Below, in pieces: positions 12,581 through 62,263 of a stretch of 64,000 nucleotides of DNA; the stretch's first letter is position 1, and each line of letters starts with the position of its first letter. The notes under the pieces were generated by a model. That model saw nothing but the letters and a program-made list of their open reading frames with translations. It was not told the DNA's origin and searched no databases. The stretch is from positions 27,044-91,043 of the forward strand of contig JAQTSD010000002.1 in the NCBI GenBank assembly GCA_028711445.1, written 5' to 3'. Origin of the DNA: Candidatus Peribacteraceae bacterium. Lineage in GTDB: Bacteria; Patescibacteriota; Gracilibacteria; Peribacterales; Peribacteraceae. The position numbers were made by a program, and so were the translations under genes.

Positions 12581-12838
12581 ATGCCCACCGACTTAAGTCG
12601 CCTCATCAGCCTGGTGAAGGGGAGCAAGCTCCTCATGGATGACGAACGCAAAGAGTGGCTCGCCAAGATGGAAACGATGTCCGAGTCGCAGCTCAAAAAG
12701 CTGTCCGACATTCTCGAGCGTGCGGAGAAAGTGAACTGGACTCAAGAACTGCCCAAGTACGAGGCAGCCGTTCAGGCGGCGGAAACATTCGTACAATCGA
12801 CGCAAGCAACACTCTCTTCCCCTCTCACCAATGCCTGA
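12581..12838 (+). CDS. hypothetical helical protein (first gene of orphan cluster)
   Basis: 85-aa ORF behind a consensus promoter, with an 8-nt overlap with the next ORF. I recognise no family. Confidence 0.5.
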   Translation: MPTDLSRLISLVKGSKLLMDDERKEWLAKMETMSESQLKKLSDILERAEKVNWTQELPKYEAAVQAAETFVQSTQATLSSPLTNA

Positions 12839-33137: not shown

Positions 33138-34076
33138 ATGACTCTTTCTCAAACCATCCTCGGTGTCCGGTTTTCCAACCCCACCGTTCTTGCTTCGGGT
33201 ATCTGGGGGATCACGGCAGCGAGTTGGCGTGCGGCGGCGAGGGTCGGAGCAGGAGGAGTGACGACGAAATCCCTCTGGTTGAAGGAGCATCGCGGCCACG
33301 TCAGTCCGGTGATCATCGCCACGGACCATTGGACACTCAATGCCGTCGGAGTGCCGGATGCCGGCATCGAGAAGGCACGCGAGGAGATCGGGGACTACCA
33401 GAGAGATCCACCTGTTCCTCTGATTGCGAACATCATTGCCGACACGGTCGAAAATTACGGCAAGACCGCTTCGGCGATCGCGAAGCTCAAACCGGAATTT
33501 CTTGAGGTGAATATCAGCTGCCCGAATGTGGAGGATGAGTTGGGCAAGCCCTTCGCCTGTTCTGCGCACGCTGCCGCGGCTGTCACGAAAGCCGTGAAGG
33601 CTGTCAGCGGGAAGATCCCCGTCTTCATTAAGCTCTCGCCGAATGTCGACTCCATCGCCGCGATCGCACAGTCCTGCGCCGCCGCCGGCGCGGACGGCTT
33701 CACCGTCATCAATACCGTCGGGCCGGGCATGGCGATCGACTTGAAGAGCCGCATGCCCATCCTCACCAACCGTGTCGGCGGTCTCTCTGGTCCGGCCATC
33801 AAGCCGATCGCGGTCCGGTGCATTGCGGACGTCTACCGTGCGACGGACGGCGAGCTCCCGATCATCGGGACGGGAGGCGTGATGACCGGCGAAGACGCGC
33901 TGGAACTCATGCTTGCGGGTGCGAGTCTCATCGGTATCGGATCTGCCGTCGGCTATCGAGGTCACAAGGTTTTTTCACTTGTCTGTGCGGAGATGGAGAC
34001 ATGGTGTAAGCGGGAGGGGGTCAGGAAGATCGGGGAGATGGTGGGGGCATTGAAAGATGTACAACATAAGGCATGA
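33138..34076 (+). CDS. pyrD: dihydroorotate dehydrogenase B, catalytic subunit
   Basis: NPTVLASG...GGVTTKS...LNAVGVPDAG...EVNISCPN...FIKLSPN...INTVGPGMAIDL...GGLSGPAIKPIAVR...IIGTGGV. The start (33120 or 33138) is uncertain. Confidence 0.9.
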   Translation: MTLSQTILGVRFSNPTVLASGIWGITAASWRAAARVGAGGVTTKSLWLKEHRGHVSPVIIATDHWTLNAVGVPDAGIEKAREEIGDYQRDPPVPLIANIIADTVENYGKTASAIAKLKPEFLEVNISCPNVEDELGKPFACSAHAAAAVTKAVKAVSGKIPVFIKLSPNVDSIAAIAQSCAAAGADGFTVINTVGPGMAIDLKSRMPILTNRVGGLSGPAIKPIAVRCIADVYRATDGELPIIGTGGVMTGEDALELMLAGASLIGIGSAVGYRGHKVFSLVCAEMETWCKREGVRKIGEMVGALKDVQHKA

Positions 34077-34903
34077 GTACAACTATTCCATTACAGGCGC
34101 GGCTTCCGAAGACTTATAAAATCACTTCCATGAAGCGTGAGACGGAGCAGGTGACATCATGTACATTTGACGTATCGCTTGGATCGCGGCCCGGACAGTT
34201 TGTGATGCTGTGGCTTCCCGGGGTGGAGGAGATCCCCATGAGCGTGGCGAATGATGACGGAAAGCAACTCACAGTTACATTCTTCGCTGTCGGAGAGACT
34301 ACCAAGAAGCTGGCGGGGTTGAAGAAAGGTGATCTGGTCGGACTGCGCGGTCCCTTTGGGACATTCTACGAATGGAAACCTCGTCAGAAGCTCGCACTTG
34401 TCGCGGGTGGTTATGGTGCTGCTCCAATGTATTTCACGGCGAGAGAAGCGGCGAAAGATGGTTGTACACTTTTCATCTTCGTTGGTGCACGAAGTAAAGA
34501 GCATCTCCTCTACCTTTCGGCGTTTAAGAAATTGCCACGTACGACCTTGTATATTTCAACCGATGATGGCTCACAGGGGTTTAAAGGTTTCAATGTGCAA
34601 TTGCTGGAGAAGATGCTCAAAGAGGGCAAGCAAGCCCTTACAATCGACCAGATCTTCGCCTGCGGACCCGAACGGATGCTTAAGGCCGTCTCAGATCTCT
34701 CCTTCAGGAAAAAGATTCTCAGCCAACTCTCGTTGGAGCGTTACATGAAGTGCGGTTTCGGCCTGTGCGGCAACTGCGTCGTCGACCCGCTCGGTATCCG
34801 CCTCTGTATCGATGGACCAGTTGTGAAGAATGATCTTGCGCGCAAGATCACGGAATTCGGGAAGTATCATCGGGATGAACTGGGGAGAAAGAGAGTGTTG
34901 TAG
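34073..34903 (+). CDS. pyrK: dihydroorotate dehydrogenase electron transfer subunit
   Basis: FAD/NAD-binding fold (RPGQFVMLWLPG...EIPMSV; LVAGGYGAAPM). C-terminal 2Fe-2S ligands MKCGFGLCGNCVVD. ATGA overlap with pyrD. Confidence 0.9.
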   Translation: MSTTIPLQARLPKTYKITSMKRETEQVTSCTFDVSLGSRPGQFVMLWLPGVEEIPMSVANDDGKQLTVTFFAVGETTKKLAGLKKGDLVGLRGPFGTFYEWKPRQKLALVAGGYGAAPMYFTAREAAKDGCTLFIFVGARSKEHLLYLSAFKKLPRTTLYISTDDGSQGFKGFNVQLLEKMLKEGKQALTIDQIFACGPERMLKAVSDLSFRKKILSQLSLERYMKCGFGLCGNCVVDPLGIRLCIDGPVVKNDLARKITEFGKYHRDELGRKRVL

Positions 34904-42232: not shown

Positions 42233-42281
42233 GGGCATTTGCATGCAGGAAAACGATGCAATATGAGTTGGCACTCTTCTC

Positions 42282-42310
42282 TTGCGAGTGCTAAATCGGT
42301 GTGCTAGACT
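42282..42310 (+). promoter_or_regulatory. mini-gene promoter, copy 1 (-35 TTGCGA, 17 bp, -10 TAGACT)
   Basis: TTGCGA at 42282-42287 and TAGACT at 42305-42310. Copy 2 has identical hexamers and identical spacing. Confidence 0.6.
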
Positions 42311-42342
42311 GCGGATCCTTCATTTCTTTCCCCCTCTTTCCC

Positions 42343-42393
42343 ATGACCGGTGGCGGTAAAGGCGGGTGTGGCGGCTGCTGTGGCTGCTGCTAA
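42343..42393 (+). CDS. 16-aa Gly/Cys-only peptide MTGGGKGGCGGCCGCC (mini-gene copy 1)
   Basis: My own translation; the ORF is below the track cutoff. ATG, reading frame, stop and the C-terminal CCGCC are conserved in the second copy at 46204..46260. It has its own promoter and terminator. Confidence 0.55.
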   Translation: MTGGGKGGCGGCCGCC

Positions 42394-42430
42394 CCCCTTC
42401 GGGGCGAGTGTCGCCCACATGAAATCCTCA

Positions 42431-42451
42431 GGCGGCCGCAAGCCGCCTTTT
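42431..42451 (+). terminator. rho-independent terminator of mini-gene copy 1
   Basis: GGCGGC-CGCAA-GCCGCC followed by TTTT. Confidence 0.75.
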
Positions 42452-42602
42452 CATGTATTCGATGTTTTTGAATTTCACCATCAATTGCATAATATTCCAT
42501 TCGGAAGTGGGAGGATTCTCTTCCTATGCGTTTAACCTTCATTGAAATTCCAGTCGGAGAATCCTTGCGATTCTTCGGTGTCTGCTATGCTGCAGGTGCG
42601 TT

Positions 42603-45117: not shown

Positions 45118-45669
45118 TTACAAAATATATGGAATAAACATTCTCACCTTCTTCTTGTATGCGGCATATGACTCCGGAAATATCGTAGCCAGCAAGGTCT
45201 CTTCCTTCCGTGCACGCAAGTACAGACCAATGAGGAGGGCGAAGAACAGGAGAAAACCCTCCAGATGGCGGTACCATAGGATGGTTCCAAATGTCAGACA
45301 GGAGAATCCCGTGTAAATGGGATGGCGAACGAAGCGGTACGGACCGGACCGGACAAGCTCGTGACGCTCTTTGAGCGTGAGATCCGCGCTCCAGTTGCGA
45401 CCGAGACTTGTTCGCGCCCAAATTTCAATACCCGTACCAAGAATGACAAATACCAAAGCCACGTCATCAAGTACAAACGAATCTGTCCATAGCAACAACC
45501 CCGTATATCCGAGACGGGCGAGAATAGTGTACGCGATGATGAGAAGATAAAGAAAAATTCTCTGCCATTTCCAGCTTTGTCTTACGAGAGTCCTCTTCGC
45601 TGAGAATGCGGCGAAGGAGGCGTCCAAGAACGGATGCACACTCAAAGTCTTCGTCGGTGCGCGGAGCAA
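45118..45669 (-). CDS. isoprenylcysteine carboxyl methyltransferase (ICMT/PEMT) family membrane protein
   Basis: LVRSGPYRFVRHPIYTGF...RKEETLLATIFPESYAAYKKKV is the characteristic ICMT-family C-terminal motif. The first ~26 codons are antisense to the pyrK fragment, so the true start is uncertain. Confidence 0.75.
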   Translation of the reverse strand: MLRAPTKTLSVHPFLDASFAAFSAKRTLVRQSWKWQRIFLYLLIIAYTILARLGYTGLLLWTDSFVLDDVALVFVILGTGIEIWARTSLGRNWSADLTLKERHELVRSGPYRFVRHPIYTGFSCLTFGTILWYRHLEGFLLFFALLIGLYLRARKEETLLATIFPESYAAYKKKVRMFIPYIL

Positions 45670-46072
45670 AGATCACCTCCTCTACCTCCCGGCATTCAAA
45701 AAATTACCGCGCACGACCCTGCACGTCTCGACCGATGACGGGTCGCAGGGATTCAAGGGTTTCAATGTGCAGCTGTTGGAGCGGTCACTCAAGGAGAAGA
45801 AATCGGCATTCGTCGATCAGATCTTCGCCTGCGGGCCGGAGCGGATGCTGAAAGCGGTCTCCGATCTCTCCTTCGAGATGAAGATCCCCAGCCAACTCTC
45901 TCTGGAACGGTACATGAAGTGCGGTTTCGGCCTGTGCGGCAACTGCGTGGTCGATCCGCTGGGTATCCGCCTCTGCACCGATGGGCCGGTGGTGCGTAAT
46001 GACATCGCGCGAAAGATCACGGAATTCGGGAAGTATTGTCGGGACGATCTTGGCCGAAAGCATTCATTTTAG
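45590..46072 (+). pseudogene. pyrK: 5'-truncated, diverged second copy of the pyrK 3' half
   Basis: My in-frame translation is ...LFAENAAKEASKNGCTLKVFVGARSKDHLLYLPAFKKLPRTTLHVSTDDGSQGFKGFNVQLLE...QIFACGPERMLKAVSDLSF...LSLERYMKCGFGLCGNCVVDPLGIRLC...ITEFGKY...*. It aligns with residues ~125-276 of the intact PyrK (34073..34903). No N-terminal FAD domain and no start context. Confidence 0.8.
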
Positions 46073-46128
46073 GGTTAGGATTAGGGGGATGCTTTCGTCT
46101 TATCCTAACCCTAACACCTAACCCTAAA
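46069..46128. repeat. hairpin made of TTAGGG/CCCTAA-like units
   Basis: TTAGGGTTAGGATTAGGGGG...ATCCTAACCCTAACACCTAACCCTAAA. GGGTTAGGAT (46072-46081) pairs perfectly with ATCCTAACCC (46102-46111). Confidence 0.4.
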
Positions 46129-46142
46129 CTGGCACTCCCCCC

Positions 46143-46171
46143 TTGCGAGTGCCAATTTCCCATGCTAGACT
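46143..46171 (+). promoter_or_regulatory. mini-gene promoter, copy 2 (-35 TTGCGA, 17 bp, -10 TAGACT)
   Basis: TTGCGA at 46143-46148 and TAGACT at 46166-46171. Confidence 0.6.
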
Positions 46172-46203
46172 CAAGGTCCTTCATTTCTTTCCCCGTTTCC
46201 CCT

Positions 46204-46260
46204 ATGACCGGTGGCGATAAAGGCGGCGGGTGTGGCGGCGGCTGCTGTGGCTGCTGCTAA
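46204..46260 (+). CDS. 18-aa Gly/Cys-only peptide MTGGDKGGGCGGGCCGCC (mini-gene copy 2)
   Basis: It differs from copy 1 by one substitution (GGT to GAT) and two 3-nt (GGC) insertions. The frame, the stop and the C-terminal CCGCC are preserved. Confidence 0.55.
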   Translation: MTGGDKGGGCGGGCCGCC

Positions 46261-46295
46261 ACCCCTCGAGCGGCTCTCGCTCGCATGATCTCGAA

Positions 46296-46316
46296 GGCGG
46301 CCCGTGGCCGCCTTTT
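46296..46316 (+). terminator. rho-independent terminator of mini-gene copy 2
   Basis: GGCGGCC-CGT-GGCCGCC followed by TTTT. Confidence 0.75.
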
Positions 46317-46383
46317 CATGACGGTTTCTTGTCCCTCCTCTTGCGCCACTGTTCCCGAAGAAGTTCTGAGGGGGGGCTATTGT

Positions 46384-48235: not shown

Positions 48236-48310
48236 GGCCCTATCGTCTAATGGTTAGGACATCAGGTTTTCAGCCTGAGAATCGGGGTTCGATTCCCCGT
48301 GGGGCTGCCA
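48236..48310 (+). tRNA. tRNA-Glu (anticodon UUC)
   Basis: Manual cloverleaf fold. Acceptor stem GGCCCTA/TGGGGCT (two G-T wobbles), D arm GTCT/GGAC, and anticodon stem TCAGG/CCTGA with loop TTTTCAG (anticodon TTC). T arm CGGGG-TTCGATT-CCCCG, with an encoded CCA. Confidence 0.9.
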
Positions 48311-48460
48311 TTCTGCGTCGCAAGCTATGCAGAATGGCAGGGGGGTGGTCTGCGAAGCTCTCTGCTTTGCGTAGCTTCGCAGCGCAAAGCGCGGAGTATG
48401 ACCTTGGAGTTGCTGGAATAAATATTCCGGTTGATCAGCTATAACGCTATAGTCTGAAGC

Positions 48461-51400
48461 ATGTCTAGTGATTTGATGGAAGATCCCATTCTAAACTCGC
48501 CCTACAATGAGCCGAGCAGACATTTTGGTGCTGACGAGAGAGGTCTGACGCAAGAAGTAGTAGAGAGTCGCCGTCCAAGTAGTTTCTACATTCCAGTCCC
48601 GAAAGCAAAGACGAAGCAGAAGCAACTCGACTTACATCTTGCCGAGGGTGCCTTCGGGAGTGAGTTGCAAAAAGAGAATGAATTTATTAACAAGGTCAGA
48701 GCGAAGATAAAGGAGTGGCGAGCGATCGGTTACTCAGGAATCACCAAGGCCTCGCGCGATCTGCTTATGTATTGGAAAGATGAATCGAGAGATAACAAAT
48801 TATTCTATTGCCAAATCGAAGCATTAGAAACATTGATGTACATCAATGAAGTCGCGGAGAAGTCTGGGGACAGTTGGATTATCAATGAACTCAAGAAAGC
48901 AAATGCAGACGCCAATCCTGGTCTGTATCGATTGGCTTTCAAAATGGCTACAGGATCGGGCAAGACTGTTGTCATGGCAATGATCATTGCCTATCACACA
49001 CTGAATAAAATCCGCTATCCGCAGGACACGCGTTTCACAGATGCATTCGTCATTGTGACGCCGGGCATCACGATTCGTGATCGTCTCAATGTTCTTCATC
49101 CAAATGATCCACAGAACTACTACCGCTTACGCAACATTGTTTCCTATCAAGACCTAGAACTCTTACAACAGGCCACGGTTCACATAACAAATTTCCATCA
49201 GCTAGAACAACGACAGAACCAACGTTTTCAGGTGGGAGGTGTATTGAAAGCCGCCAAGCTGCTTAAGGAGGAGGCAATGAAAGAAACCCCCAGTGCGATG
49301 GTGAATCGTGCATTTAAGAGTGTTCTCTCCAAATCGCGTGTGCTCGTGATAAACGATGAGGCTCATCACTGTTACCGCGAGAAACCCAGTGAACAGAAAC
49401 TCTCAGGTGAAGAGCGGAAGGAGGCTGATGAGAATAACAAGGCAGCGCGGGTCTGGATCAGTGGATTGGAAGCACTAGCGCAAAAGATCAATATCAATGC
49501 GGTTATTGATCTCTCTGCCACACCGTACTTCCTCAGTGGTTCTGGTTACGCCGAGGGCACATTATTTCCATGGACTACGTTCGATTTCTCCCTGTTGGAT
49601 GCTCTTGAATGTGGAGTTGTGAAGATCCCACGCCTTCCCATCGAATCAGACACCATCTCGATTGATGATGAGCCAGAATTTCGTAATCTGTGGCTCCACG
49701 TTCGCGATAATTTGCCAAAAAAAGGATTGAAAACTGGAAACTACGATCTCTCTGTACTTATCCTTCCAACGAAGCTACAAGAGGCATTGGAGTCCCTCTA
49801 TGGAAACTATGAGAAGTATCATCGGGAGTATGAGAAACAGAAAAAAGGAAATCCTGCGGTGATGCCACCGGTGATGATTGTCGTATGTAATAACACGACA
49901 GTCTCAGAGCTTCTGTACCGCTGGATTGCAGGATATGAGAGGGAGACTGCAAGTGGTCAGATTAAGATTGAGAAAGGTAATCTCGAAATATTCCGAAACG
50001 AAGATGGCGTTCGTTTCTTTGATCGGCCTAGCACCCTCCTCATAGATAGTGCCCAGATTGAGAGTGGAGAGAAGATTAGTGATGAATTCAAAAAGATCTT
50101 CACCAAAGAGATCGCTGATTTCCATAAGGAATACCACAAACGTTTTCCGGGTCGTGAAGATCCAACCGATGAAGAGCTCTTGCGTGAGGTGATGAATACC
50201 GTAGGTAAACCGGGGAAGCTTGGAGAAAACATCAAGTGTGTTGTTTCAGTATCCATGCTTACCGAGGGATGGGATGTGAATACTGTCACTCACGTTCTCG
50301 GCGTTCGCGCATTCTCAACACAGCTCCTTTGTGAACAGGTCGTGGGCCGCGCTTTGAGACGAGTGGATTACAGCGTTGATGACTCAACAGGGCTTCTTTC
50401 TCCTGAGTACGCAGAGGTATATGGGGTGCCATTTAGCTTCCTGAAAGCAACGGGGCCCACGCCACCACAGCCGCCGAAGGTAATCCACAGAGTACGTTCT
50501 CTTCCTGAGCGAGAGGATCAGTACCAAATTACCTTTCCACGTGTTGAAGGGTATCGATATGAACTTAACGAAACCAAGCTCTCTGCTCACTTCACCGAGG
50601 AATCAAAAACCATTATTGAGAATGAACCTACTGAAGTGACCTTAGGTGGTCTCATTGGCAAAGAGGAAAAAGAGATGCTCGAAAAAATTAAAGAGCGCCG
50701 TGAGGGAGAGGTCATCATTCGATTGGTACAGAGTCTGCTAAAACGTTATTACACAGATGCAGATGGCAGTGAAAAGTATTGGCTGACACCAAAATTGATG
50801 AAGATTACTGAGGAATATGTGAAGCACCATGTCATCCTGAAAGACCGCATGGTAATTGGTTATCTCTCCGTCGGAGCGTATTTCTCTGGTGCACTCACAA
50901 AGATTCAACAGGCTATTGTGACGGATAATTTAGAGAGCCAAAAAGACAGGAAGGTACTGCCGATTCTGGCCCCTTACGACACTCTTGGATCAACGCGTTA
51001 TGTAGATTATCTGACAACGAAAGAGGTTCGCGAAACGGTGAAGAGTCACATCAATTATGTGGTCGCTGATACGCAAGAGTGGGAGCAGGGGGTTGCGAAG
51101 AAGCTGGAACAGATGCCAGAGGTTCTAGCCTATGTAAAAAACCAGAATTTGGGCTTCACCATTCCCTATGAACATCAGGGCGCAGCTCATCAATATATTC
51201 CCGACTTCATAGCTGTCCTGAAATTGCCTGATGGAAGTAAGTTGAATTTGCTCATCGAAGTAACAGGGAAAAAAGACGACAAGAAGGCGACGAAGATCAA
51301 GACGGCCCGTGAGCTTTGGGTACCTGCGGTCAATAACAATGGGAAATTTGGAGTTTGGGCAGTGATTGAAATCCAAGACATCCATGAGACACAGAATCTC

Positions 51401-51463
51401 ATTCGTGCCGGTATGGCGAGAGGGTTTGACCATATCGTTCCCGATAGTTTGTTTACCAAATAA
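48461..51463 (+). CDS. res: type III restriction enzyme, Res subunit (SF2 helicase plus PD-ExK nuclease)
   Basis: Walker A MATGSGKTVVMA, DEAH box INDEAHHCY, motif VI QVVGRALRR, and a C-terminal nuclease core YIPDFIAV...LLIEVTGKK. Confidence 0.88.
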   Translation: MSSDLMEDPILNSPYNEPSRHFGADERGLTQEVVESRRPSSFYIPVPKAKTKQKQLDLHLAEGAFGSELQKENEFINKVRAKIKEWRAIGYSGITKASRDLLMYWKDESRDNKLFYCQIEALETLMYINEVAEKSGDSWIINELKKANADANPGLYRLAFKMATGSGKTVVMAMIIAYHTLNKIRYPQDTRFTDAFVIVTPGITIRDRLNVLHPNDPQNYYRLRNIVSYQDLELLQQATVHITNFHQLEQRQNQRFQVGGVLKAAKLLKEEAMKETPSAMVNRAFKSVLSKSRVLVINDEAHHCYREKPSEQKLSGEERKEADENNKAARVWISGLEALAQKININAVIDLSATPYFLSGSGYAEGTLFPWTTFDFSLLDALECGVVKIPRLPIESDTISIDDEPEFRNLWLHVRDNLPKKGLKTGNYDLSVLILPTKLQEALESLYGNYEKYHREYEKQKKGNPAVMPPVMIVVCNNTTVSELLYRWIAGYERETASGQIKIEKGNLEIFRNEDGVRFFDRPSTLLIDSAQIESGEKISDEFKKIFTKEIADFHKEYHKRFPGREDPTDEELLREVMNTVGKPGKLGENIKCVVSVSMLTEGWDVNTVTHVLGVRAFSTQLLCEQVVGRALRRVDYSVDDSTGLLSPEYAEVYGVPFSFLKATGPTPPQPPKVIHRVRSLPEREDQYQITFPRVEGYRYELNETKLSAHFTEESKTIIENEPTEVTLGGLIGKEEKEMLEKIKERREGEVIIRLVQSLLKRYYTDADGSEKYWLTPKLMKITEEYVKHHVILKDRMVIGYLSVGAYFSGALTKIQQAIVTDNLESQKDRKVLPILAPYDTLGSTRYVDYLTTKEVRETVKSHINYVVADTQEWEQGVAKKLEQMPEVLAYVKNQNLGFTIPYEHQGAAHQYIPDFIAVLKLPDGSKLNLLIEVTGKKDDKKATKIKTARELWVPAVNNNGKFGVWAVIEIQDIHETQNLIRAGMARGFDHIVPDSLFTK

Positions 51464-53946
51464 TGCTTATGCCAAAAAAGAAGCAATCACAGTCTACAAC
51501 TGCAGCTCCGGTAGCCTCGTACAAGCACGATGCTAAGCGGGTGCATATTCCGACACAGGAAGAATCCGTAAAGCTCTCAGCGCGTGAGAAGCAGCCAGTG
51601 AAGAAGAGGTACGACTACGATCCCTCGCTCGATCCACAGCTCATTTGGGCAGGGAAAAAGGAGCAGGGCAGCGAGTTGGCAGTATCGACAGTCCCCATCT
51701 ATGTACAAGAGAAAATTGCACCAGAAGCGATTATTGCACGTCTCAAGGCTGGTACGAGCGAAAATGCACAGATGCTCCTTTTTGGCGAAACTGCAGAGAC
51801 GCAGGTGAGCAAGGCAGTGGAATTCTATAAACATGAGGACAACTGGCAAAACCGAATGATTCTAGGAGATTCACTGCTTGTAATGAACTCCCTTCTTGAG
51901 AAAGAGGGTATGCGAGGCAGAGTCCAGACTGTCTACATAGACCCACCATACGGAATCAAATTCGGAAGTAATTGGCAGGTCTCAACTCGCAAGAGAGATG
52001 TGAAGGATAACAAATTGGATAATTTTGTGCGGCAGCCGGAGCAAGTAAAGGCGTTTCGTGATACATGGGAATTAGGTATTCATTCCTACCTCTCCTATCT
52101 ACGAGATCGCTTACTCACAGCTCGTGAACTACTAACGGATAGTGGTTCGTGTTTTGTTCAGATTAACGATGAAAATGTACATCTTGTGCGCTGTATCCTT
52201 GATGAGGTATTTGGAAGTGATAATTTCTTAAGCATTATTCATTTCAACACTACAGGAGGCTTTGCTACCAATACTCTAAGTCGAATCGGAGACTATATCC
52301 TTTGGTATGGGAAAGATGCTTCCAAAGTAAAATATCGGCCGTTATTCCTAGAAAAAATTGCTATCGAAACAGGAGATAGCCAATATCGATTCTTAGAGCT
52401 TTCTGATGGGACACGACGACCAATGACGCCAGACGAACGTAACGGAATTGAAACTTTGCCCAAAGGATCGAAAATATACCGCTATGGAGATATGTGTGGT
52501 CAAGGAGCAGCAAAAGAACCCACTCCTGTAACTTTTCGGGGAAAGATATTTTTTCCAACAGCAAACAGTCATTGGAAAGCCAATTACCCCAAAGGGGTGG
52601 AGAAGTTGATTAAAGCAAATCGGGTTGAGGCATCAGGGAATACATTGAGTTACGTCCGTTATGTTGAAGATTTTCCCGTGACACCGTATAGCAATATTTG
52701 GATGGATACAGGGACTTCTGGTTTCGCTAGTTCGAAAATATATGTCGTTCAAACAAATGTTGATGTCATTCAGCGATGTGTCTTACTTTCCACCGATCCT
52801 GGCGATATCGTTCTTGATCCAACCTGTGGTTCTGGCACCACCGCGTTCGTAGCTGAACAATGGGGAAGGCGTTGGATTACCATTGATACCTCGCGCGTTG
52901 CTTTGGCTTTGGCTAGAACACGCTTAATGACTTCTAAATTTCCATTCTACAAGCTAAAGGATGAACACTATGTAAGTGCAGGTTTTGAATATAAGACTGT
53001 TCCGCACGTGACACTGAAATCTATTGCCAATGATGAAGAGCCAGAAAAGGAAGTGCTCTTCGATCAGCCCATTGAAATAAAGGAAATTATCCGTGTTACA
53101 GGGCCATTCACTGTTGAATCACTTTCCCCACACCGCGTCTCAGATGCACAAGAGATGCTTTCAAGTGAACGATTTGTTGAGACAGTTATTTCGAACCTTC
53201 TTCAGGCAGGAGTGCAGACTGGCCAGAAGGGGGCAAGAGTGGAGTTCGTGAATCTGGATATTCTTCCTAGCGGGCCAGAAGTGCAGGCTGTTGGGGAATA
53301 TAAGACTGCTGATGGGCTCAAGAAAGTTGCTGTTTCGATCGGCCCAGAGTTTGGCAGCGTCGATGATGATTTCATTCGTGATGCGGCGAAGGTGGCAAAG
53401 AAGTTTTCAGATCTACTTATTGTCGCTGGAACATCATTCGAGGCATCAGCCTTTTCTGAGCCTTCTCAGATCGAAGGTCTGCAGGTCATGAAAGTGAAGA
53501 TCAATCCGGATCTTTCGATGGGAGATCTGCTGAAAAAGACAGGATCAGGGAATCTATTCTTGGTCTTTGGTGAGCCAGAGGTGAAGGTAAAAGAAGTTAA
53601 AGATGGGATGGTAGTGGAGATCCTTGGTGTGGATGTGTATGACCCGGTGAAGAGCGAAATACGTTCCAGTGGCTCAGGAGATCCGGAACACGACATTGCC
53701 GCTTGGTTCATAGATACGAATTACAACGGAGACGCATTCTTCGTCCATCATGCGTACTTCCTTGGTGCCGATAAGCCATACGAGAAATTGAAGAAGGCAC
53801 TCAAGGCAGAAATTGATGAGAGTGCCTGGGAAGAACTCTATTCCACTGTCTCACGTCCGTTCCCCAAGCCGAAAACAGGGAAAATTGCGATCAAGGTTAT
53901 TAATCACTATGGAGACGAAGTCATGAGAGTATTTCAGGTAGATTAG
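51463..53946 (+). CDS. mod: type III (beta-class) DNA methyltransferase, Mod subunit, N6-adenine/N4-cytosine type
   Basis: Motif IV VYIDPPYGIKF precedes motif I VLDPTCGSGTTAFVAEQWGRRWITID. The ATG overlaps the res TAA by 1 nt. Confidence 0.9.
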   Translation: MLMPKKKQSQSTTAAPVASYKHDAKRVHIPTQEESVKLSAREKQPVKKRYDYDPSLDPQLIWAGKKEQGSELAVSTVPIYVQEKIAPEAIIARLKAGTSENAQMLLFGETAETQVSKAVEFYKHEDNWQNRMILGDSLLVMNSLLEKEGMRGRVQTVYIDPPYGIKFGSNWQVSTRKRDVKDNKLDNFVRQPEQVKAFRDTWELGIHSYLSYLRDRLLTARELLTDSGSCFVQINDENVHLVRCILDEVFGSDNFLSIIHFNTTGGFATNTLSRIGDYILWYGKDASKVKYRPLFLEKIAIETGDSQYRFLELSDGTRRPMTPDERNGIETLPKGSKIYRYGDMCGQGAAKEPTPVTFRGKIFFPTANSHWKANYPKGVEKLIKANRVEASGNTLSYVRYVEDFPVTPYSNIWMDTGTSGFASSKIYVVQTNVDVIQRCVLLSTDPGDIVLDPTCGSGTTAFVAEQWGRRWITIDTSRVALALARTRLMTSKFPFYKLKDEHYVSAGFEYKTVPHVTLKSIANDEEPEKEVLFDQPIEIKEIIRVTGPFTVESLSPHRVSDAQEMLSSERFVETVISNLLQAGVQTGQKGARVEFVNLDILPSGPEVQAVGEYKTADGLKKVAVSIGPEFGSVDDDFIRDAAKVAKKFSDLLIVAGTSFEASAFSEPSQIEGLQVMKVKINPDLSMGDLLKKTGSGNLFLVFGEPEVKVKEVKDGMVVEILGVDVYDPVKSEIRSSGSGDPEHDIAAWFIDTNYNGDAFFVHHAYFLGADKPYEKLKKALKAEIDESAWEELYSTVSRPFPKPKTGKIAIKVINHYGDEVMRVFQVD

Positions 53947-53982
53947 TACCCAACTTCTTTATCATATTATGAAACCAAAAAT

Positions 53983-54540
53983 ATGAAAGCTAATCCCTCC
54001 GAGCAGCCATCCATTCATCTCTGTAAACAATGTGGCAGAATTCCTAAAACAAATGAGGATCCCACATTTGTTAACTATAGCTGGAAAGTCTGGGATAAGT
54101 CTCGGGATCGAGGAAGAATCTGCGAATGCGAACACTGTGAACAGCGATTCTTGGAATACGATATTTCAGCAGACTTCTACGGTCCAAAGGCATTTGAAGT
54201 GAGCATAGAAGGTACTGATTGGATTCCCATTACAAAGCAGGAAGTGGATATCCTCAGATCGAACGATGCGGGATGGTGGTACATTAAAAAACTCGTAACT
54301 ACCAGAAGTCATCTCTATAGAGAAAATGGTCGGTATTTTTGGCACAAACTAAAAAAACAAACAAAAGCGAAGGATTTAGCTGATAGCATGCTACGTGCTC
54401 TGAAAGAAGTTAACGAACGATCTATGCGAAAGGGTGGGGGTTGGGTACCACAGTGGGATGAAATGAACGGGAATGAACGTAGGGAATATCTGAAGTTTCT
54501 TGAAGAAAAAACTCGTCATTCCTCAGACAGAGAAGAATGA
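53983..54540 (+). CDS. hypothetical Zn-ribbon protein
   Basis: 185 aa. CKQCG...CECEHC provides four Cys ligands. Basic C-terminal half. Lies in the low-GC island. Confidence 0.5.
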   Translation: MKANPSEQPSIHLCKQCGRIPKTNEDPTFVNYSWKVWDKSRDRGRICECEHCEQRFLEYDISADFYGPKAFEVSIEGTDWIPITKQEVDILRSNDAGWWYIKKLVTTRSHLYRENGRYFWHKLKKQTKAKDLADSMLRALKEVNERSMRKGGGWVPQWDEMNGNERREYLKFLEEKTRHSSDREE

Positions 54541-57018
54541 TTTTTTAACTAGATTCATATTATATCCGCCGCAGTCACATTTAATGCTCGTTGGCATTCC
54601 CTCCTTGTCATTTATCACTTTCAAGAGAGAGCCACATTTAGGATTACTGCATCGGAAAATATCGAATAACTCCTTGTATGCTTCAATGACAGGTTCGAAG
54701 TCTTGTTTCTCAAGTTGGTGCCATTCGTTGAAATGCACGACTGAATTCACAGCCCAACCCTCGCTTCTCGTTCGTTGCATTATTTCCTTTACCACACTTT
54801 CCCATTCTTTGATTTTATCTACTGCATCCTGTTTGTTCCATGAATTTGCTGACTCCTTTGCTTTTGCAAGAATAGAAAGATACGAGCTTATACTGGCTGG
54901 AAGGAAATCGCCGAGATCCCATCTACTGTTCATGTGGTAGGTAACTTTTGCCTGAAGCGCATCACAGACCTCCCTAAAGAATTCTTCTGCTCCACGGCGC
55001 AGTTTGTGTGCAGCGCTTGGTATGTCGTTTTTCTGCAAGTCGGAAGTAATGCGTTCCCAAAGATCAGTTTGAGTATTGACTTGCGGCCCTGAATTAACAT
55101 TCCAGTTATAGAATTCAACAAGTCTCGAAGATTTAATTACACCCTCACTTTTCAATTGATTTGCCCATGTCCTATCATGAGTGGTAATTAAAAATTGCCG
55201 ATGTGGGAATTGTTTCTTTAACAACAAACACAGCTGCTTTCTATGTTCGGAATCCACAGACATTACGACATCGTCCAGAATAATGAGATCTAGGATTCCT
55301 TTGGTCAGATAGTCGCTCAATGCAAGGAACAGACATAGTCCCATACTGTCTTGGTGCCCCTCGCTGTGTAAGGCATGCGGGGGGTGGCATCCTCTTCCGT
55401 AGAAATCGACTTCAAAATCAAGGCCAGCTCCTGATGGCTCAATAACTGCCAAGAAGTTTTCCTCGTCAGAACCGTGTAATTCTTTGTAGAGGGCAACGAA
55501 TCGATCTCGAATTGCCTCGTAGAGTGATGCAAGTACTTCATCTCTAGCCTGCTCAAAGGCACTTAAAAGCATTTCCGCCTTTGACAGTGCTGATTCAAAT
55601 TTCATTAGATCCTTCTTGGCCGTTTCATACATCTTCAAATTTTCCTCGAGTCTTATGAGAGTATCCAAAGCAGTTCGTTGAGGTGAAACTGTCTTTCGTA
55701 TTTTTGCCTCGGTCAGTACCTCAGACATCGTCTCCGCTCTGGAGCTGGGAGCAAATAATCCTGCAACATCTTCAGATGATTGTTGCGCCACCGGGTAGCC
55801 CTCGACAGCAGCATCAACTTCAAAGAGTAAAACCATTTTTTCAAGTTTTTTTAACCATTCGTCAAACGCATCCTTCGCTTTTTCCAAGTCCAATTGTTGC
55901 GCGGCAGTTCGGATGTTCTTTATGAAAGCGATTGCCTCACTGTAGTGTTTCTTCATCTTCTGAGCTTCTGAAGTAATTGTATCCACCTGGCCTGCTGCCT
56001 TTTTCGCCTCCTCGCTTCGCCTTTCGAGATGTGATTGTAGCTTTGCTGCATCCCATTGAGTATCACAGAGAGGGCATTTTCCCGAATCATCCAGAAGTTC
56101 AATTCCTCTCGATATCAGCGAGGAGTGCTTATGAGCACGAAGTAGTTCAGAGTTAGACCTAATATCGTTAAGTGCTTTTCGTAAAGCTGTTTCTGCCTTG
56201 AGGAGGCTTGCGGTATGTTCATTCCCAAGAAGTTTATTGAGACCCTCAATGTCCTTTTCTAAGAGGGCGGGGTTGGGATTCTTGGCGTTGTCTTTTTTCT
56301 CCTCTTCAACCCCTTTTAACTGCGACTTAATTTTGGTCGAATGCAGCTCAGTGATCGGCTCCCCACCAAGAATCTTACGATGACGATTAACTTCGGCAAG
56401 GATCGCTTCTTTGTCGTCTTTCTGGAGGCCGGCATTCGTTCGTATGCTGGTCAAACACTTCTCCACGGACTGCACTGCAGATTTATGAGCAGCACTTGCC
56501 TTGTTCTTTGCACTCACAATCGCTTGTCTGGCCTCTTCGATATCTGAAATGTTCAGTAGTTCTTGAATTTCCTCAGCGCGCTTTTTTGACTCCGAATGAA
56601 CGTACTTCAGTATTTCTCTACGGGTGAGCACATGCTGGCCTCTTTGTGCAAACAAAATAACCGGTTCCATTGCTCTAATCACATCTTTCGACGCAATAAG
56701 AGTGTCCGGTTCTTTCATGCATCTACTGATTTCTACTGGCTGATCAAAAGCTTCTAACTTGATCTTTGCAGTCACGACTACCTCCTCTGGGCTTTCGGCC
56801 GCATCTATATGCGGGCCATGTTTCTTGACTGAGATGCCCCGTGTACCCACTCCGCACAAGCGGGCAATTTTTCCAGTAAGAAGAAAATCGATTGCATCAA
56901 CCACGGCGCTTTTCCCAGATCCATTCGGTCCTGCAATAGCAAAGTTATCTCCTCCGACTTCAAAGGAAGCCTGACGAATGCCCCGAATATCTTTGATGTT
57001 AATACTAATAATCCTCAT
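54523..57018 (-). CDS. SMC/Rad50-like ABC ATPase with CxxC zinc hook and C-terminal Zn-ribbon domain (RloC/AAA_13-like?)
   Basis: Walker A AGPNGSGKSAVVDA. Long coiled-coil interrupted by GKCPLCDTQW (nt ~56065-56076). Signature/Walker B HSEGHQDSMGLCLFLAL...LIILDDVVMSVD and D-loop/H-loop ITTHDR. ~210-aa C-terminal extension ending CSNPKCGS...CDCGG. Confidence 0.8.
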   Translation of the reverse strand: MRIISINIKDIRGIRQASFEVGGDNFAIAGPNGSGKSAVVDAIDFLLTGKIARLCGVGTRGISVKKHGPHIDAAESPEEVVVTAKIKLEAFDQPVEISRCMKEPDTLIASKDVIRAMEPVILFAQRGQHVLTRREILKYVHSESKKRAEEIQELLNISDIEEARQAIVSAKNKASAAHKSAVQSVEKCLTSIRTNAGLQKDDKEAILAEVNRHRKILGGEPITELHSTKIKSQLKGVEEEKKDNAKNPNPALLEKDIEGLNKLLGNEHTASLLKAETALRKALNDIRSNSELLRAHKHSSLISRGIELLDDSGKCPLCDTQWDAAKLQSHLERRSEEAKKAAGQVDTITSEAQKMKKHYSEAIAFIKNIRTAAQQLDLEKAKDAFDEWLKKLEKMVLLFEVDAAVEGYPVAQQSSEDVAGLFAPSSRAETMSEVLTEAKIRKTVSPQRTALDTLIRLEENLKMYETAKKDLMKFESALSKAEMLLSAFEQARDEVLASLYEAIRDRFVALYKELHGSDEENFLAVIEPSGAGLDFEVDFYGRGCHPPHALHSEGHQDSMGLCLFLALSDYLTKGILDLIILDDVVMSVDSEHRKQLCLLLKKQFPHRQFLITTHDRTWANQLKSEGVIKSSRLVEFYNWNVNSGPQVNTQTDLWERITSDLQKNDIPSAAHKLRRGAEEFFREVCDALQAKVTYHMNSRWDLGDFLPASISSYLSILAKAKESANSWNKQDAVDKIKEWESVVKEIMQRTRSEGWAVNSVVHFNEWHQLEKQDFEPVIEAYKELFDIFRCSNPKCGSLLKVINDKEGMPTSIKCDCGGYNMNLVKKSFFSV

Positions 57019-59222: not shown

Positions 59223-59840
59223 TCAATCCTTCCTGAAGATGCAGCTGAAGTCGTATTCCACTGGCCACATATCTGTGATGCAGACTTTGCACCCGTGTGC
59301 GGTGAAGAGGCTGATGAGATCTTCGCGCGAGAGACGATTTACAGAATCACGACGCAATACATCGGGATTTTGGGATTGGTCCGCATTCGGGGAGGAATTA
59401 TCGATGGCGGCGAAGGCGATGAAATGTCTTGCAACGCGTGCGAACTCCGCAGCACTTCGGGAGCATTCCTCCACGGTAAGGTATTGAAAAATATCGTTGC
59501 AGAGGAGCACGTCGAAGGATGCGTCGGGAAAGGGGAGGTGGAATGACTCGCCGAAGGTCATCCACTGCTTCGAGGGCGCGTGCTCCAAACAGTAAGGTGA
59601 CACCTCTGTTCCCCATGCTTCGAAACCCAAGCGCCGAAGAACCAACATCGTCCCCCCCATACCGCAGCCTACATCGAGGAATGTCCAATCCGGTTGCGGA
59701 TGTACGTGATCGATAACCGCTTGCACGAGATCAGTCATCTCTTCTTCGAAGCGTTCAAGGTAATCGTCATAGCCATCTGTCGTGTAGTACGCGTAGTCGA
59801 ATTGACGGTAGTACGCTTCCCGGGCGGAGACGGGTTTCAT
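59223..59840 (-). CDS. class I SAM-dependent methyltransferase
   Basis: Motif I FLDVGCGMGG and post-I acidic LGFEAWGTEVS. Motif II FDVLLCNDIFQYL. 4-nt overlap with the upstream ATP-grasp gene. Confidence 0.85.
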   Translation of the reverse strand: MKPVSAREAYYRQFDYAYYTTDGYDDYLERFEEEMTDLVQAVIDHVHPQPDWTFLDVGCGMGGTMLVLRRLGFEAWGTEVSPYCLEHAPSKQWMTFGESFHLPFPDASFDVLLCNDIFQYLTVEECSRSAAEFARVARHFIAFAAIDNSSPNADQSQNPDVLRRDSVNRLSREDLISLFTAHGCKVCITDMWPVEYDFSCIFRKD

Positions 59841-62263
59841 AGCAACGTCGTCTGGAGGTGGTAGTACGGAGGACGATCCTTGTAGCGCTTGATGGCGAGC
59901 TTCATGATCTCTTCGATGAAATCGGCATAATCCATGCCGACGAGTTGGGCGCAGTCGGGAAGGTAGTCGCCAAAATTGATCGACGGATTCGGATTGAGTT
60001 CAAGCACATAGGGGTTGCCTTCTTCGTCGGTGCGGATCTCGATGCGGCCGTAATCGTGACAGTCGAGGATATTATACGTGTCCAGGGCGATCTCCGTGAT
60101 GAGCGATTCCAGCTTCTTGGGGATCTTTGCCGGCTTCTGAATGATGATGCTCTTGTAGGGTTTTTTCTCCAGCCACTTGGCATCGTAAGTGTAGATATGC
60201 CAGTAGCCTTTCGGCATGTTTTTGAAGATGGAACGTGCAAGAGGCAAGACTTTTAAATCATCCTCCTCATTGCCCAAAATGGAGACATCGTACTCGTCGC
60301 CTTCGATGTACTCTTCGACGAGTGCCGGGCTGCCGATACCGCGGATGATGTGCTCGAGCTGATCGCGGAGCTGGCGCTTGTCGGTGACGACGGATTTATT
60401 TGTGATGCCGATGGAGTTGTCGGAATTTGCCGGTTTTACGATGAGCGGGTAGCAGAGGTCTTCGCTGATGTCGTCATCCACATCGTAGGCATAGTCCCAG
60501 CGGGGAGTGGGGATGCCGTGATAGGAGAGGAGCTTCTTTACGCGGATCTTGTCTATACAGAGACTCAAAGTGAATGGGTTACTGCCTGTGTATGGGATCT
60601 GAAGAATGTCGAAAACGGAAGCGGCGTGTGGTTCTAGAAGACTTGAATCATTGATACGCTCACAAACGTTGAAGACGATATCTACGTCGGATTCTTTGAG
60701 TTGCTGGATGGCAGTCATGACATCGTTGAAGTCGAAGAATGTCACACGGTTTCCCCGTGCTTTGAGAGTCTTCTCGATTGAGTGACCGACGGCAGTGAGA
60801 TCCTGTTCCACTTCGCTATGTCCCTCATAGGTATTGCATGCGATGCCGACGTGCAGATTCTTCAGGTCTCGCTTCGAGAGCGTGCGTAGTTTTTCGATCT
60901 TCGTAAGGCTTGGGGAGATTTGTCCATTGATGAATGCCGGTGACTTGTGACGCTTACGAAGAGTTTTACCTACAGATGAGTAGCTTCGGAAAGGCGAAAC
61001 CTCGATGGTAATCTGTCGTTGCACTCGTGCCATTGCCTGTTCTGCTTCGGAGACAGTGCGTCCCGTTACGGATACCCACCCGATACTCTCGTAGCCGTCC
61101 GGTGGGACGAGGACGTTGTCGCCGACGCGCATAGCCATGAAGAGGGAGAGAAGGTTCTTCTCTTTGCGACGCACTTGTTCCACGCCGCGGATCTTCGTGA
61201 TCACACCCGAAACCTCGGGGATGAAAAAGCTGCTCACGACGTGACGCGTAGGCTCTTTGGGGATCTGCAGGACATTACGGCCGAGCGCAATGTCCACGCC
61301 AGCTTCGATGAGATCGAACTCGTAGACGTTGAGGGTGTTCTCATAGGTGTAATCACCGCCCATGCGTGAGGCAACTTCGATCACTTGAATACCATCGCGG
61401 GTTTTCTTCAGCTCGACATGTGCGAGGCTGTCGCGGACGCCGAGGACAATGAGAGCCTCCTTTGCTGCTTCTGTGAGCTCCCACTCCTCCTCATCATTGA
61501 TGCGTGACGGGATGTGGTCGCCGGTTTCCATGAAGAACGGCGGATTCATTGGTGACTTCTCGTGAATACCCACAACGTGAGGGACGCCGTGCTGAACGTA
61601 GCATTCGAGACTAAACTCATGCCCTTCGACAAATTGCTGATAGAGAAAGAGGCGCTTGTTGTAGTGATAGATAGGATCGAAAGCCGGCGTACAGTTCTTG
61701 AGGAGATAATTGTAAGCGTTTTGTGCTTCGTCCGCGTCTTCCACGAGGATGACGAACTGGCTGTCGGCACCGAAGACGGGTTTCATCACTGCCGGGAAAC
61801 CGATGGCCTGGATAGCGATGTTCAGATCAGCTTTCGTGCGAAGTAGTTGGTGAGGGATGTGTCTCAAGCCGCACTTTTTGAATTGTTCCTGCATCTTCAT
61901 CTTGTCGCGTGTGAATGTAGCTGTCTCCGAGCTGTTTCCTTGAAGCTTGAACTCTGCACAGATCTTTGCGAGCAACGGAATGTCATCTTCCCAGAAGGTA
62001 ATTGCACCATCGAAGTGTTTACCGTGGTTGGTCGCGAGGTAGGCGCGCACTGCTTCGAGCACCTCTGTGTGATTGTATGTATCTGCGATGATCCAATCAT
62101 CCACGTACGGCTGCGCCCAGTTACGTTCCTTGTGGACGGCGACAATGCGTACTTTGAGCTTGCGGAGTTTCTGGATGATGTACTTCGTGTCGTGTGTTCC
62201 AGTGTTGACGAGCAGCAGTGTTTTTTTCTCAGATGTCTCGGGCATTGTAGTGATCCTTTTCAT
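59837..62263 (-). CDS. fusion of two ATP-grasp ligase modules (L-amino-acid-ligase-like plus D-Ala-D-Ala-ligase-like)
   Basis: Module 1: FPAVMKPVFGADSQFV...QQFVEGHEFSLE...HVELKKT...VIEVASRMGG. Module 2: YPLIVKPANSDNSIGI...EEYIEGDEYDVSILG...GRIEIRTDEEGNPYVLELNPNPS. Confidence 0.8.
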   Translation of the reverse strand: MKRITTMPETSEKKTLLLVNTGTHDTKYIIQKLRKLKVRIVAVHKERNWAQPYVDDWIIADTYNHTEVLEAVRAYLATNHGKHFDGAITFWEDDIPLLAKICAEFKLQGNSSETATFTRDKMKMQEQFKKCGLRHIPHQLLRTKADLNIAIQAIGFPAVMKPVFGADSQFVILVEDADEAQNAYNYLLKNCTPAFDPIYHYNKRLFLYQQFVEGHEFSLECYVQHGVPHVVGIHEKSPMNPPFFMETGDHIPSRINDEEEWELTEAAKEALIVLGVRDSLAHVELKKTRDGIQVIEVASRMGGDYTYENTLNVYEFDLIEAGVDIALGRNVLQIPKEPTRHVVSSFFIPEVSGVITKIRGVEQVRRKEKNLLSLFMAMRVGDNVLVPPDGYESIGWVSVTGRTVSEAEQAMARVQRQITIEVSPFRSYSSVGKTLRKRHKSPAFINGQISPSLTKIEKLRTLSKRDLKNLHVGIACNTYEGHSEVEQDLTAVGHSIEKTLKARGNRVTFFDFNDVMTAIQQLKESDVDIVFNVCERINDSSLLEPHAASVFDILQIPYTGSNPFTLSLCIDKIRVKKLLSYHGIPTPRWDYAYDVDDDISEDLCYPLIVKPANSDNSIGITNKSVVTDKRQLRDQLEHIIRGIGSPALVEEYIEGDEYDVSILGNEEDDLKVLPLARSIFKNMPKGYWHIYTYDAKWLEKKPYKSIIIQKPAKIPKKLESLITEIALDTYNILDCHDYGRIEIRTDEEGNPYVLELNPNPSINFGDYLPDCAQLVGMDYADFIEEIMKLAIKRYKDRPPYYHLQTTLL

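Follow-up and report, generated by a model that had tools for sequence, protein, structure and literature searches.

A conserved Gly/Cys micro-gene with a CIRCE operator in its promoter: a probable HrcA-controlled stress gene of Peribacteraceae

We analyzed 64,000 nucleotides of contig JAQTSD010000002.1 from a Candidatus Peribacteraceae bacterium (hereafter the window, with positions counted from its first letter), in which a short unit encoding a peptide rich in glycine and cysteine is present twice, as copy 1 (42268-42452) and copy 2 (46129-46318), both read directly. The unit represents a real conserved gene family that is limited to one lineage, the Peribacteraceae, which are uncultured groundwater bacteria of the Candidate Phyla Radiation (CPR) with reduced genomes. 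Its promoter holds a CIRCE element, and therefore the biological reading becomes that of a gene of the heat-shock regulon. Taken as a whole, we consider it on balance probable that the unit is an HrcA/CIRCE-controlled stress gene for a Gly/Cys micro-peptide.

The operator and the conserved unit

In both copies, an inverted repeat covers the -35 hexamer and corresponds to the CIRCE element, whose consensus is TTAGCACTC-N9-GAGTGCTAA, with the exact spacing of nine nucleotides between the arms. It reads TTGGCACTC-TTCTCTTGC-GAGTGCTAA in copy 1 (42268-42294, plus strand), with one mismatch to the 18 positions of the consensus, and CTGGCACTC-CCCCCTTGC-GAGTGCCAA in copy 2 (46129-46155, plus strand), with three. 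Only these two sites of the 64 kb match CIRCE at three mismatches or fewer, and 100 shuffles gave no match. CIRCE is the operator of HrcA, the repressor of the groESL and dnaK heat-shock operons, and the groESL operon of Desulfovibrio vulgaris carries the variant cTgGCACTC-N9-GAGTGCcAA (PMC545781). The arms of copy 2 are identical to those of the D. vulgaris variant. An earlier, sequence-only reading of this DNA had given the promoter hexamers and their spacing correctly but had overlooked the operator within the promoter; since the inverted repeat is part of the unit, copy 2 begins at 46129, 14 nt upstream of the start reported there.

Relatives were fetched through homologues of pyrK, an anchor that is independent of the open reading frame (ORF). 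Every locus whose pyrK is 73-88% identical to that of the window, and for which downstream DNA is available, carries the unit directly after pyrK (L073/L074, L075, L076/L077, L078, L080/L081 and L082), a position common to six lineages when copy 2 of the window is counted. L073/L074 represent the same stretch as L018 (Ca. Peribacteria UBA11694), the sequence of L079 ends just past the promoter, and L073, L074 and L082 are JGI contigs. All members show one and the same succession of features: CIRCE, the -35 within it (TTGCGA or TTGAGA), a 17-bp spacer, an extended -10 TGnTAnnnT, a leader with two to five purines in its last 30 nt, ATG, an ORF of 9-18 codons closed by TAA or TGA, and, after a variable stretch, an intrinsic terminator 30-70 nt past the stop. 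The eight units from six lineages share the overlap of CIRCE with the -35 and a distance of 74-75 nt from the first CIRCE base to the ATG. In their alignment, the most conserved columns are the CIRCE arms, the TTG of the -35, TGnTAnnnT, the ATG and GGnGGn, and the terminator stem is also among the invariant columns. The encoded peptides are MTGGGKGGCGGCCGCC in L073/L074 and L075, MSGGCCGGCGDKK in L076/L077, MIGGGKGGCGCGSC in L078, MSGGEKGGCCGCC in L080/L081 and MIGGGKCGC in L082. We regard it as very likely that this is a real CIRCE-controlled transcription unit.

The predicted regulation of the unit agrees with that of the HrcA/CIRCE family on each testable feature: the same operator, TTAGCACTC-N9-GAGTGCTAA, lies at the promoter with one to three mismatches, within about 75 nt of the start codon, and is strongly conserved between orthologues. 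The difference is in the target, which here is a Gly/Cys ORF of 9-18 codons, whereas the usual targets encode a chaperone or a protease. The cargo under this well-known heat-shock operator is new in kind, and no such member of a CIRCE regulon was found in the literature. Likewise, no paper was found that joins CIRCE or HrcA with metallothioneins, Cys-rich mini-proteins or CPR bacteria, and the Peribacteria genome paper mentions neither heat shock nor chaperones. No hrcA, groEL or dnaK appears in the gene tables and Pfam annotation of the window and the fetched Peribacteraceae loci, which cover the genomes in part. A sigma-54 promoter (TGGCAC-N5-TTGC) was considered and rejected, as its GG-to-GC spacing is 2 nt too long and the motif consists of the left CIRCE arm plus the -35.

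The two window copies lie on the plus strand and are 77% identical across about 190 nt in the window self-comparison, which, like the ORF scan, covered the whole 64-kb stretch. The only other internal repeat is the duplicated 3' part of pyrK, and these two are the only Gly/Cys-rich ORFs among the 399 ATG-ORFs of 9-18 aa in the window. In copy 2, the -35 hexamer TTGCGA (46143-46148) is followed after 17 bp by the extended -10 TGCTAGACT (46163-46171), with its hexamer TAGACT at 46166-46171; in copy 1, the promoter lies at 42282-42310, with TTGCGA at 42282-42287, the same 17-bp spacer length, TGCTAGACT at 42302-42310 and TAGACT at 42305-42310. The hexamers are identical and the spacer sequences differ. 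The pyrimidine-rich leaders (42316-42342 in copy 1; 46177-46203 in copy 2, where a Shine-Dalgarno motif is absent) share an identical block of 18 nt, TCCTTCATTTCTTTCCCC, at 42316-42333 and 46177-46194, which occurs nowhere else in the window even at three mismatches (0.13 sites expected).

The mini-ORF of copy 1 (42343-42393) encodes MTGGGKGGCGGCCGCC and reads ATG ACC GGT GGC GGT AAA GGC GGG TGT GGC GGC TGC TGT GGC TGC TGC TAA. That of copy 2 (46204-46260) encodes MTGGDKGGGCGGGCCGCC, also closed by TAA. It is set apart by a single nonsynonymous substitution, in which GGT becomes GAT, and by two GGC codons more than copy 1 has, while the final 21 nt including the TAA are identical. The 3' regions have diverged while the position of a hairpin is kept: GGGCGA-GTG-TCGCCC at 42402-42416 in copy 1, from sequence and fold, and CGAGCG-GCTCT-CGCTCG at 46267-46283 in copy 2. 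GC-rich intrinsic terminators follow at 42430-42452 (terminator scan) and at 46294-46318 (AAGGCGGCC-CGT-GGCCGCCTT plus a T run, from direct reading and fold), and both end in CCGCCTTTTCATG. Copy 1 is flanked by genes for HAD and OtsAB, and copy 2 by a pyrK fragment and a gene for a 562-aa orphan. The sequence-only reading had described the second copy with its peptide, hexamers and 17-bp spacing, the shared leader, the ORF differences with identical last codons, the diverged 3' region with its common end and the different flanks, and each of these statements was confirmed.

Several scans concern the spread of the family. The degenerate pattern MTGG...CCGCC, run on 185,579 species genomes, gave 53 loci with L018 as the only true member, in which the unit follows an intact pyrK; members beginning with MSGG or MIGG escape so narrow a pattern, and the scan gives no estimate of family spread. 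A metagenome scan with TGGCACTC-N5-CTTGCGAGTGC, mis-spaced by 1 nt, returned 12 chance matches and is uninformative on the occurrence of the family. A profile of the unit found no further copies in the window and all fetched DNA, and the viral contigs examined contain no family member. Among the loci compared, only the window genome has a second copy, each relative locus of 15-21 kb having one. In a Thermoplasmata archaeon metagenome-assembled genome, an extremely Cys-rich ORF (MTGGCGSCCGCCSCPCASCSPCMCCPCCCCAGV...) was seen twice, on two contigs (L022 and L038), in a context unrelated to that of the Peribacteraceae unit.

Other observations touch on the operator itself. Directly upstream of CIRCE, a conserved motif, GAATAATCAAGTGA (GAAAAATCAAGCGA in L080), is present in three more distant lineages, at about 2050-2070 in L078 and about 3862-3882 in L080 and L082, and is missing from the window copies; its role may be that of an UP element, of a second promoter or of some other binding site. 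An IMG/VR viral contig, L086, carries two perfect CIRCE elements (TTAGCACTC-N9-GAGTGCTAA) in intergenic DNA (3471-3497 and 3819-3845), which suggests that phage genes are under the control of host HrcA. L056, a metagenome contig of an unrelated organism, has a perfect CIRCE and a CIRCE-like repeat with a 10-nt spacer (6255-6281 and 7445-7468), the latter preceding a gene that resembles an ABC transporter, as judged from its first residues.

Translation of the mini-ORF

The sequence-only reading had proposed a translated ORF, and the relatives favor this claim more than the pair of copies on which it was built. In all loci found through pyrK, the ATG stays at a fixed position and opens a Gly/Cys ORF that closes with a stop after 9-18 codons, and the substitutions are biased to third positions. 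Over codons 2-9 (8 codons, about six lineages), the minimum numbers of changes at positions 1, 2 and 3 are 4, 3 and 10 (binomial p=0.027), and 2, 2 and 8 when the most divergent member is left out (p=0.019). The residues remain constant while their codons vary, with GGT, GGC, GGA and GGG for Gly, AAA and AAG for Lys, and TGT and TGC for Cys; among the ORFs of copy 1, L073 (the same stretch as L018 and L074) and L075, the sole differences are one to three synonymous changes in Cys codons. The comparison between the window copies is weaker evidence. As no synonymous change separates them, that pair alone cannot distinguish coding from constraint at the RNA level, and the argument from in-frame insertions is weaker than it seemed, given that the insertions are single GGC units in GGC runs, where slippage yields in-frame changes whether the sequence is coding or not.

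The leader had been read as functionally constrained. The constraint is genuine, though not peculiar to this gene: similar CU-rich leaders precede several genes of the window, for example those with starts at 12831, 25033, 39389 and 40746. Of the 41 genes predicted in the window with products of 150 aa or more, only 3 have a Shine-Dalgarno-like motif, and this Peribacteraceae genome seems to initiate translation largely without Shine-Dalgarno sequences. With such initiation general in the genome and CU-rich leaders frequent, the leader of the mini-gene is therefore normal for the lineage. In six of seven members, folding between -30 and +29 is weaker than in dinucleotide shuffles (z from +0.8 to +2.4); this open start region suits initiation without a Shine-Dalgarno sequence and argues against an RNA thermometer. 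A thermometer in which the CU-rich leader hides the AUG through the G-rich ORF was rejected, with a consensus fold of -4.7 kcal/mol, no covariation and less structure than the shuffles. A second ORF starting from a conserved CATGA in the 3' untranslated region (UTR) was rejected as well, its frame relative to the terminator differing between the copies. From these sequence patterns, we consider it likely that the mini-ORF is translated.

Genomic context and the second copy

The window contains a full pyrK (34073-34903), then a segment of 10.7 kb, then a truncated pyrK and copy 2. The truncated paralogue (45609-46072, plus strand) keeps the C-terminal part of about 155 codons with its frame intact, matches the Pfam family DHODB_Fe-S_bind and is 78% identical to 34437-34891 of the full gene. 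The order ProRS, H+-PPase, PpnN, CTP synthase, pyrD, pyrK in the window matches that of L073, and the truncated pyrK together with copy 2 aligns with the stretch of L018 that comprises pyrK and the mini-gene. Copy 2 occupies the ancestral position after pyrK, because the truncated pyrK precedes it as pyrK does in relatives. Copy 1 is closer to the units of L073 and L075 (93%) than to copy 2 (77-80%).

The 10.7-kb segment, which was not found downstream of pyrK in relatives, encodes an M20 peptidase, a phosphoenolpyruvate mutase, a thiamine pyrophosphate enzyme in two halves (probably a phosphonopyruvate decarboxylase), an aldehyde dehydrogenase, a 441-aa protein, a protein resembling ornithine carbamoyltransferase and HAD, followed by copy 1, OtsAB and PEMT. 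It has the appearance of an accessory island that carries genes for phosphonate biosynthesis and was brought in at pyrK, perhaps through recombination with the DNA of a relative. Copy 1 would accordingly have arisen by duplication, or been acquired with the larger segment, rather than by transposition of the unit.

The only conserved neighbor of the unit is pyrD-pyrK, upstream. The sequence-only reading had suggested that conserved flanking genes could point to a modifying enzyme; pyrD-pyrK is indeed kept, and no peptide-modifying enzyme is listed near the six members whose gene tables were read. The downstream genes are unrelated to one another: OtsAB after copy 1, the 562-aa orphan after copy 2, a 650-aa orphan in L073, an MsrB-like gene in L075 (judged from sequence), RelA/SpoT in L076 and CsoR-HMA-CopA in L082, while in L078 and L080/L081 the downstream neighbors lie on the opposite strand, convergent with the unit. 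The orphans after copy 2 and after the L073 unit are not homologous. Synteny of the unit with OtsAB or with the 562-aa orphan was rejected, as the relatives that share these neighborhoods (L071, L072 and L067-L070) lack the mini-gene.

Between the pyrK stop and CIRCE of copy 2, an imperfect palindrome with arms of TTAGGG/CTAGGG-like (telomere-like) repeats spans 46065-46131 and is unique in the window. Equivalent palindromes occur in L075 (837-925) and L073 (10701-10768), their sequence varying by genome while the palindrome is retained, and the element may be a pyrK terminator or an insulator.

Some loci have genes of metal or redox function in the vicinity. In L082 (4076-6822), the mini-gene with the shortest peptide, MIGGGKCGC, is immediately followed by an operon for CsoR, an HMA/cupredoxin protein and a copper P-type ATPase, and a CsoR-box-like site, TATACCTGGGGTGGGGGTAT, precedes this next operon and belongs to it. 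In L073, genes for a CDF transporter, DUF302 and DsrE lie about 5-8 kb from the unit (CDF at about 5 kb).

Elsewhere in the window, a tRNA-Glu gene (48236-48310) is followed by a low-GC stretch, with 43-47% against about 54%, which encodes a ResIII helicase (48461-51463), an N6/N4 DNA methylase (51463-53946) and, on the minus strand, an SMC-like AAA ATPase (54523-57018); the region 48236-57018 probably entered at the tRNA gene as an island for restriction or defence. A large double ATP-grasp protein, with one part like an L-amino-acid ligase and the other like a D-Ala-D-Ala ligase, is encoded at 59837-62263 on the minus strand; a similar protein is found in L071 (11762-14143), about 7 kb downstream of otsAB, and the enzyme could be one that forms peptides non-ribosomally. 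At 668-2840, the window has a gene cluster for DUF5320, a thioredoxin-fold protein, a protein of 419 aa that matches no Pfam family, and DUF134, a helix-turn-helix protein.

Mechanism, peptide function and rival explanations

In the mechanism that we propose, each copy would be a self-contained monocistronic stress gene with a sigma-70-type promoter (TTGCGA, 17 bp, TGnTAGACT) that is overlapped at the -35 by CIRCE. Active HrcA bound to CIRCE would occlude this promoter. In the classical case, HrcA is inactivated when unfolded proteins titrate GroEL, and under such heat or proteotoxic stress a transcript of about 140 nt, ending at the intrinsic terminator, would be made. Its unstructured pyrimidine-rich leader of about 30 nt, lacking a Shine-Dalgarno sequence, would direct translation of a peptide of 9-18 residues, which may in turn buffer thiophilic metals or oxidants freed in proteotoxic stress.

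The peptides follow the consensus M-[TSI]-G-G-x-K-G-G-C, continued by more Gly and Cys, and contain 21-31% Cys and 38-50% Gly, one Lys and no aromatic residues. Their Cys residues are arranged as CC, CxC and CxxC (motifs CGGC, CC and CGC). The L076 peptide has its Cys cluster and its Asp/Lys residues in another order, which suggests that composition would matter more than fold or residue order. Such a composition implies a very small, flexible peptide with clustered thiols and no hydrophobic core. Metal-thiolate and redox-buffer peptides such as metallothioneins and phytochelatins typically show this pattern. Because composition is kept over residue order and the Cys residues are clustered in this way, we tentatively propose, by analogy, a stress-induced buffer for thiols or metals, in the form of either a mini-metallothionein or a gene-encoded thiol of the phytochelatin kind; this is possible without being the expected outcome. 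Somewhat more doubtful still is the combined proposal of an inducible, ribosomally made low-molecular-weight thiol or micro-metallothionein that is switched by HrcA/CIRCE. The CUP1 metallothionein of yeast carries heat-shock elements (PMC10815948). It sets a precedent for the heat-shock control of a small Cys-rich metal-binding protein.

Known thiol peptides offer partial parallels. Metallothioneins (the 25-residue Cu-metallothionein of Neurospora, SmtA of cyanobacteria, MymT of mycobacteria and CUP1 of yeast) are likewise small and Gly-rich, with Cys as CC, CxC and CxxC and no aromatics, so that by composition the unit peptides fit the definition of a metallothionein-like peptide; in contrast, the unit peptides are far shorter (9-18 aa, some with two or three Cys), have no metal-sensor operator, and their metal binding is a prediction. 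Phytochelatins, (gamma-Glu-Cys)n-Gly, are also very short thiol-rich metal buffers, of which the unit peptide would then be a functional analogue, but they are made by an enzyme from glutathione, whereas the unit peptide would be gene-encoded and ribosomal.

Several points weigh against the proposal as a whole. Control by HrcA is deduced from the operator by itself. The codon-position test is small, with p only about 0.02-0.03, and the ORFs of copies 1 and 2 are free of synonymous differences despite 23% divergence of the unit, which could reflect constraint at the RNA level or gene conversion in that pair. The family appears in a narrow clade only, and L083, whose pyrK is 65% identical, has no unit within 20 kb. 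As for the buffer function, some members, MIGGGKCGC among them, have only two or three Cys, few for a metal-thiolate cluster unless the peptides oligomerize; the unit contains no metal-sensor operator, CIRCE being its sole conserved operator; and the metal or redox neighbors (CsoR-CopA in L082, the MsrB-like gene in L075 and CDF in L073) are suggestive at an anecdotal level.

Among the other explanations, an RNA product deserves the most attention, although we hold it to be unlikely. The unit would then encode an HrcA-controlled small RNA (sRNA) that uses its C/U-rich 5' end to pair with target mRNAs at their purine-rich ribosome-binding regions, the ORF being incidental or part of a dual function. 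The predicted transcript, about 140 nt long and equipped with a promoter and terminator of its own, would suit this explanation, as would the 5' block that is 100% identical between the window copies, their lack of synonymous changes at such divergence and a 3' hairpin kept in structure and changed in sequence. The third-position bias across lineages and the retention of residues through different codons speak against it, and a non-coding role leaves the fixed ATG and stop in every lineage unexplained. Moreover, the 3' UTR and an ORF-internal GGC/GCU hairpin are not conserved in L076, L080 and L082, the consensus fold amounts to a weak -4.7 kcal/mol, its covariation term being close to 0, and the CU-rich leader is common on ordinary genes of this genome. 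The window contains no complementary target at three mismatches or fewer on either strand, and Rfam gives the unit neither a match at the gathering threshold nor one at E up to 1. The dual-function sRNAs SgrS/SgrT, RNAIII/hld and SR1/SR1P do resemble the unit in transcript length, own promoter and terminator and very small ORF, but the unit yielded neither target complementarity in the window nor a conserved RNA structure, and its conservation follows codon positions. Much less probable is the precursor of a ribosomally synthesized and post-translationally modified peptide, in which the Gly/Cys peptide would be the core for thiazoles, as in microcin B17 and other thiazole/oxazole-modified microcins (TOMMs), or for thioethers, with the enzymes encoded elsewhere. 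The composition recalls the Gly/Cys-rich azole-forming core of microcin B17, and the window does encode ATP-grasp ligases (59837-62263), which are not linked to the unit. However, 9-18 residues leave no space for a recognition leader, whereas microcin B17 and TOMM precursors have a leader peptide and neighboring modification and export genes; the gene tables for six members list no YcaO, cyclodehydratase, radical-SAM or lanthipeptide-type enzyme, no set of YcaO, cyclodehydratase, dehydrogenase and exporter is seen there or in the annotated parts of the window, and CIRCE, with its heat-shock type of regulation, would be unexpected for a secondary-metabolite gene.

To each of the two remaining explanations we assign very little probability. 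If the ORF were a leader peptide acting in cis, ribosomes stalling at its Cys/Gly codons would set termination against read-through; these codons are clustered right before the hairpin and the terminator, the minimum-free-energy fold of copy 1 lets the 3' half of the ORF pair with the 5' arm of the terminator, and polycysteine short-ORF attenuators are known in mycobacteria. Like these and classical leader peptides, the unit has a tiny ORF with consecutive Cys codons before RNA structures, but it differs in that it brings a promoter and a terminator of its own along with a leader of 30 nt, and in that its downstream genes are unrelated or convergent. The genes that follow have no relation to each other or to Cys/Gly metabolism, and those after copy 2 and in L018/L073 have, by eye, promoter-like sequences of their own. 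The sequence from stop to terminator is not conserved, and therefore no common alternative pairing exists, the long-range pairing being present in the copy 1 fold only. Convergent downstream genes, in L078 and L080/L081, largely refute the attenuator. A mobile or repetitive intergenic element, with the ORF as a by-product of a GGC/TGC simple repeat, fits two copies in different contexts within 4 kb and indels that are GGC units. The sequence-only reading had likewise suggested that the unit is mobile or duplicated, and for mobility there is no support: its site after pyrK is fixed in six lineages, and it numbers two in the window and one in each relative locus. No terminal repeats, target-site duplication or transposase were seen, and copy 1 lies within the 10.7-kb segment bounded by the duplicated 3' end of pyrK, which indicates a segmental rearrangement.

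The reading of the unit as an HrcA/CIRCE-controlled gene for a Gly/Cys micro-peptide, if correct, bears on both the regulon and the lineage. The HrcA/CIRCE regulon is regarded as a small and conservative set of chaperone genes, into which a conserved Gly/Cys gene of 9-18 codons under CIRCE would bring an effector of a new kind. ORFs this short are discarded by gene callers and hence missed by annotation; the gene would be among the shortest conserved protein-coding genes known, and its product, if a thiol buffer, a functional substitute for enzymatically made thiols such as glutathione and phytochelatins. It would provide a testable functional micro-protein in CPR bacteria, whose stress physiology is little known, since the peptide is short enough for chemical synthesis and the promoter can be tested in any host that contains HrcA. 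It would also point to a way in which organisms with reduced metabolism could gain an inducible thiol or metal buffer at a genomic cost near zero.

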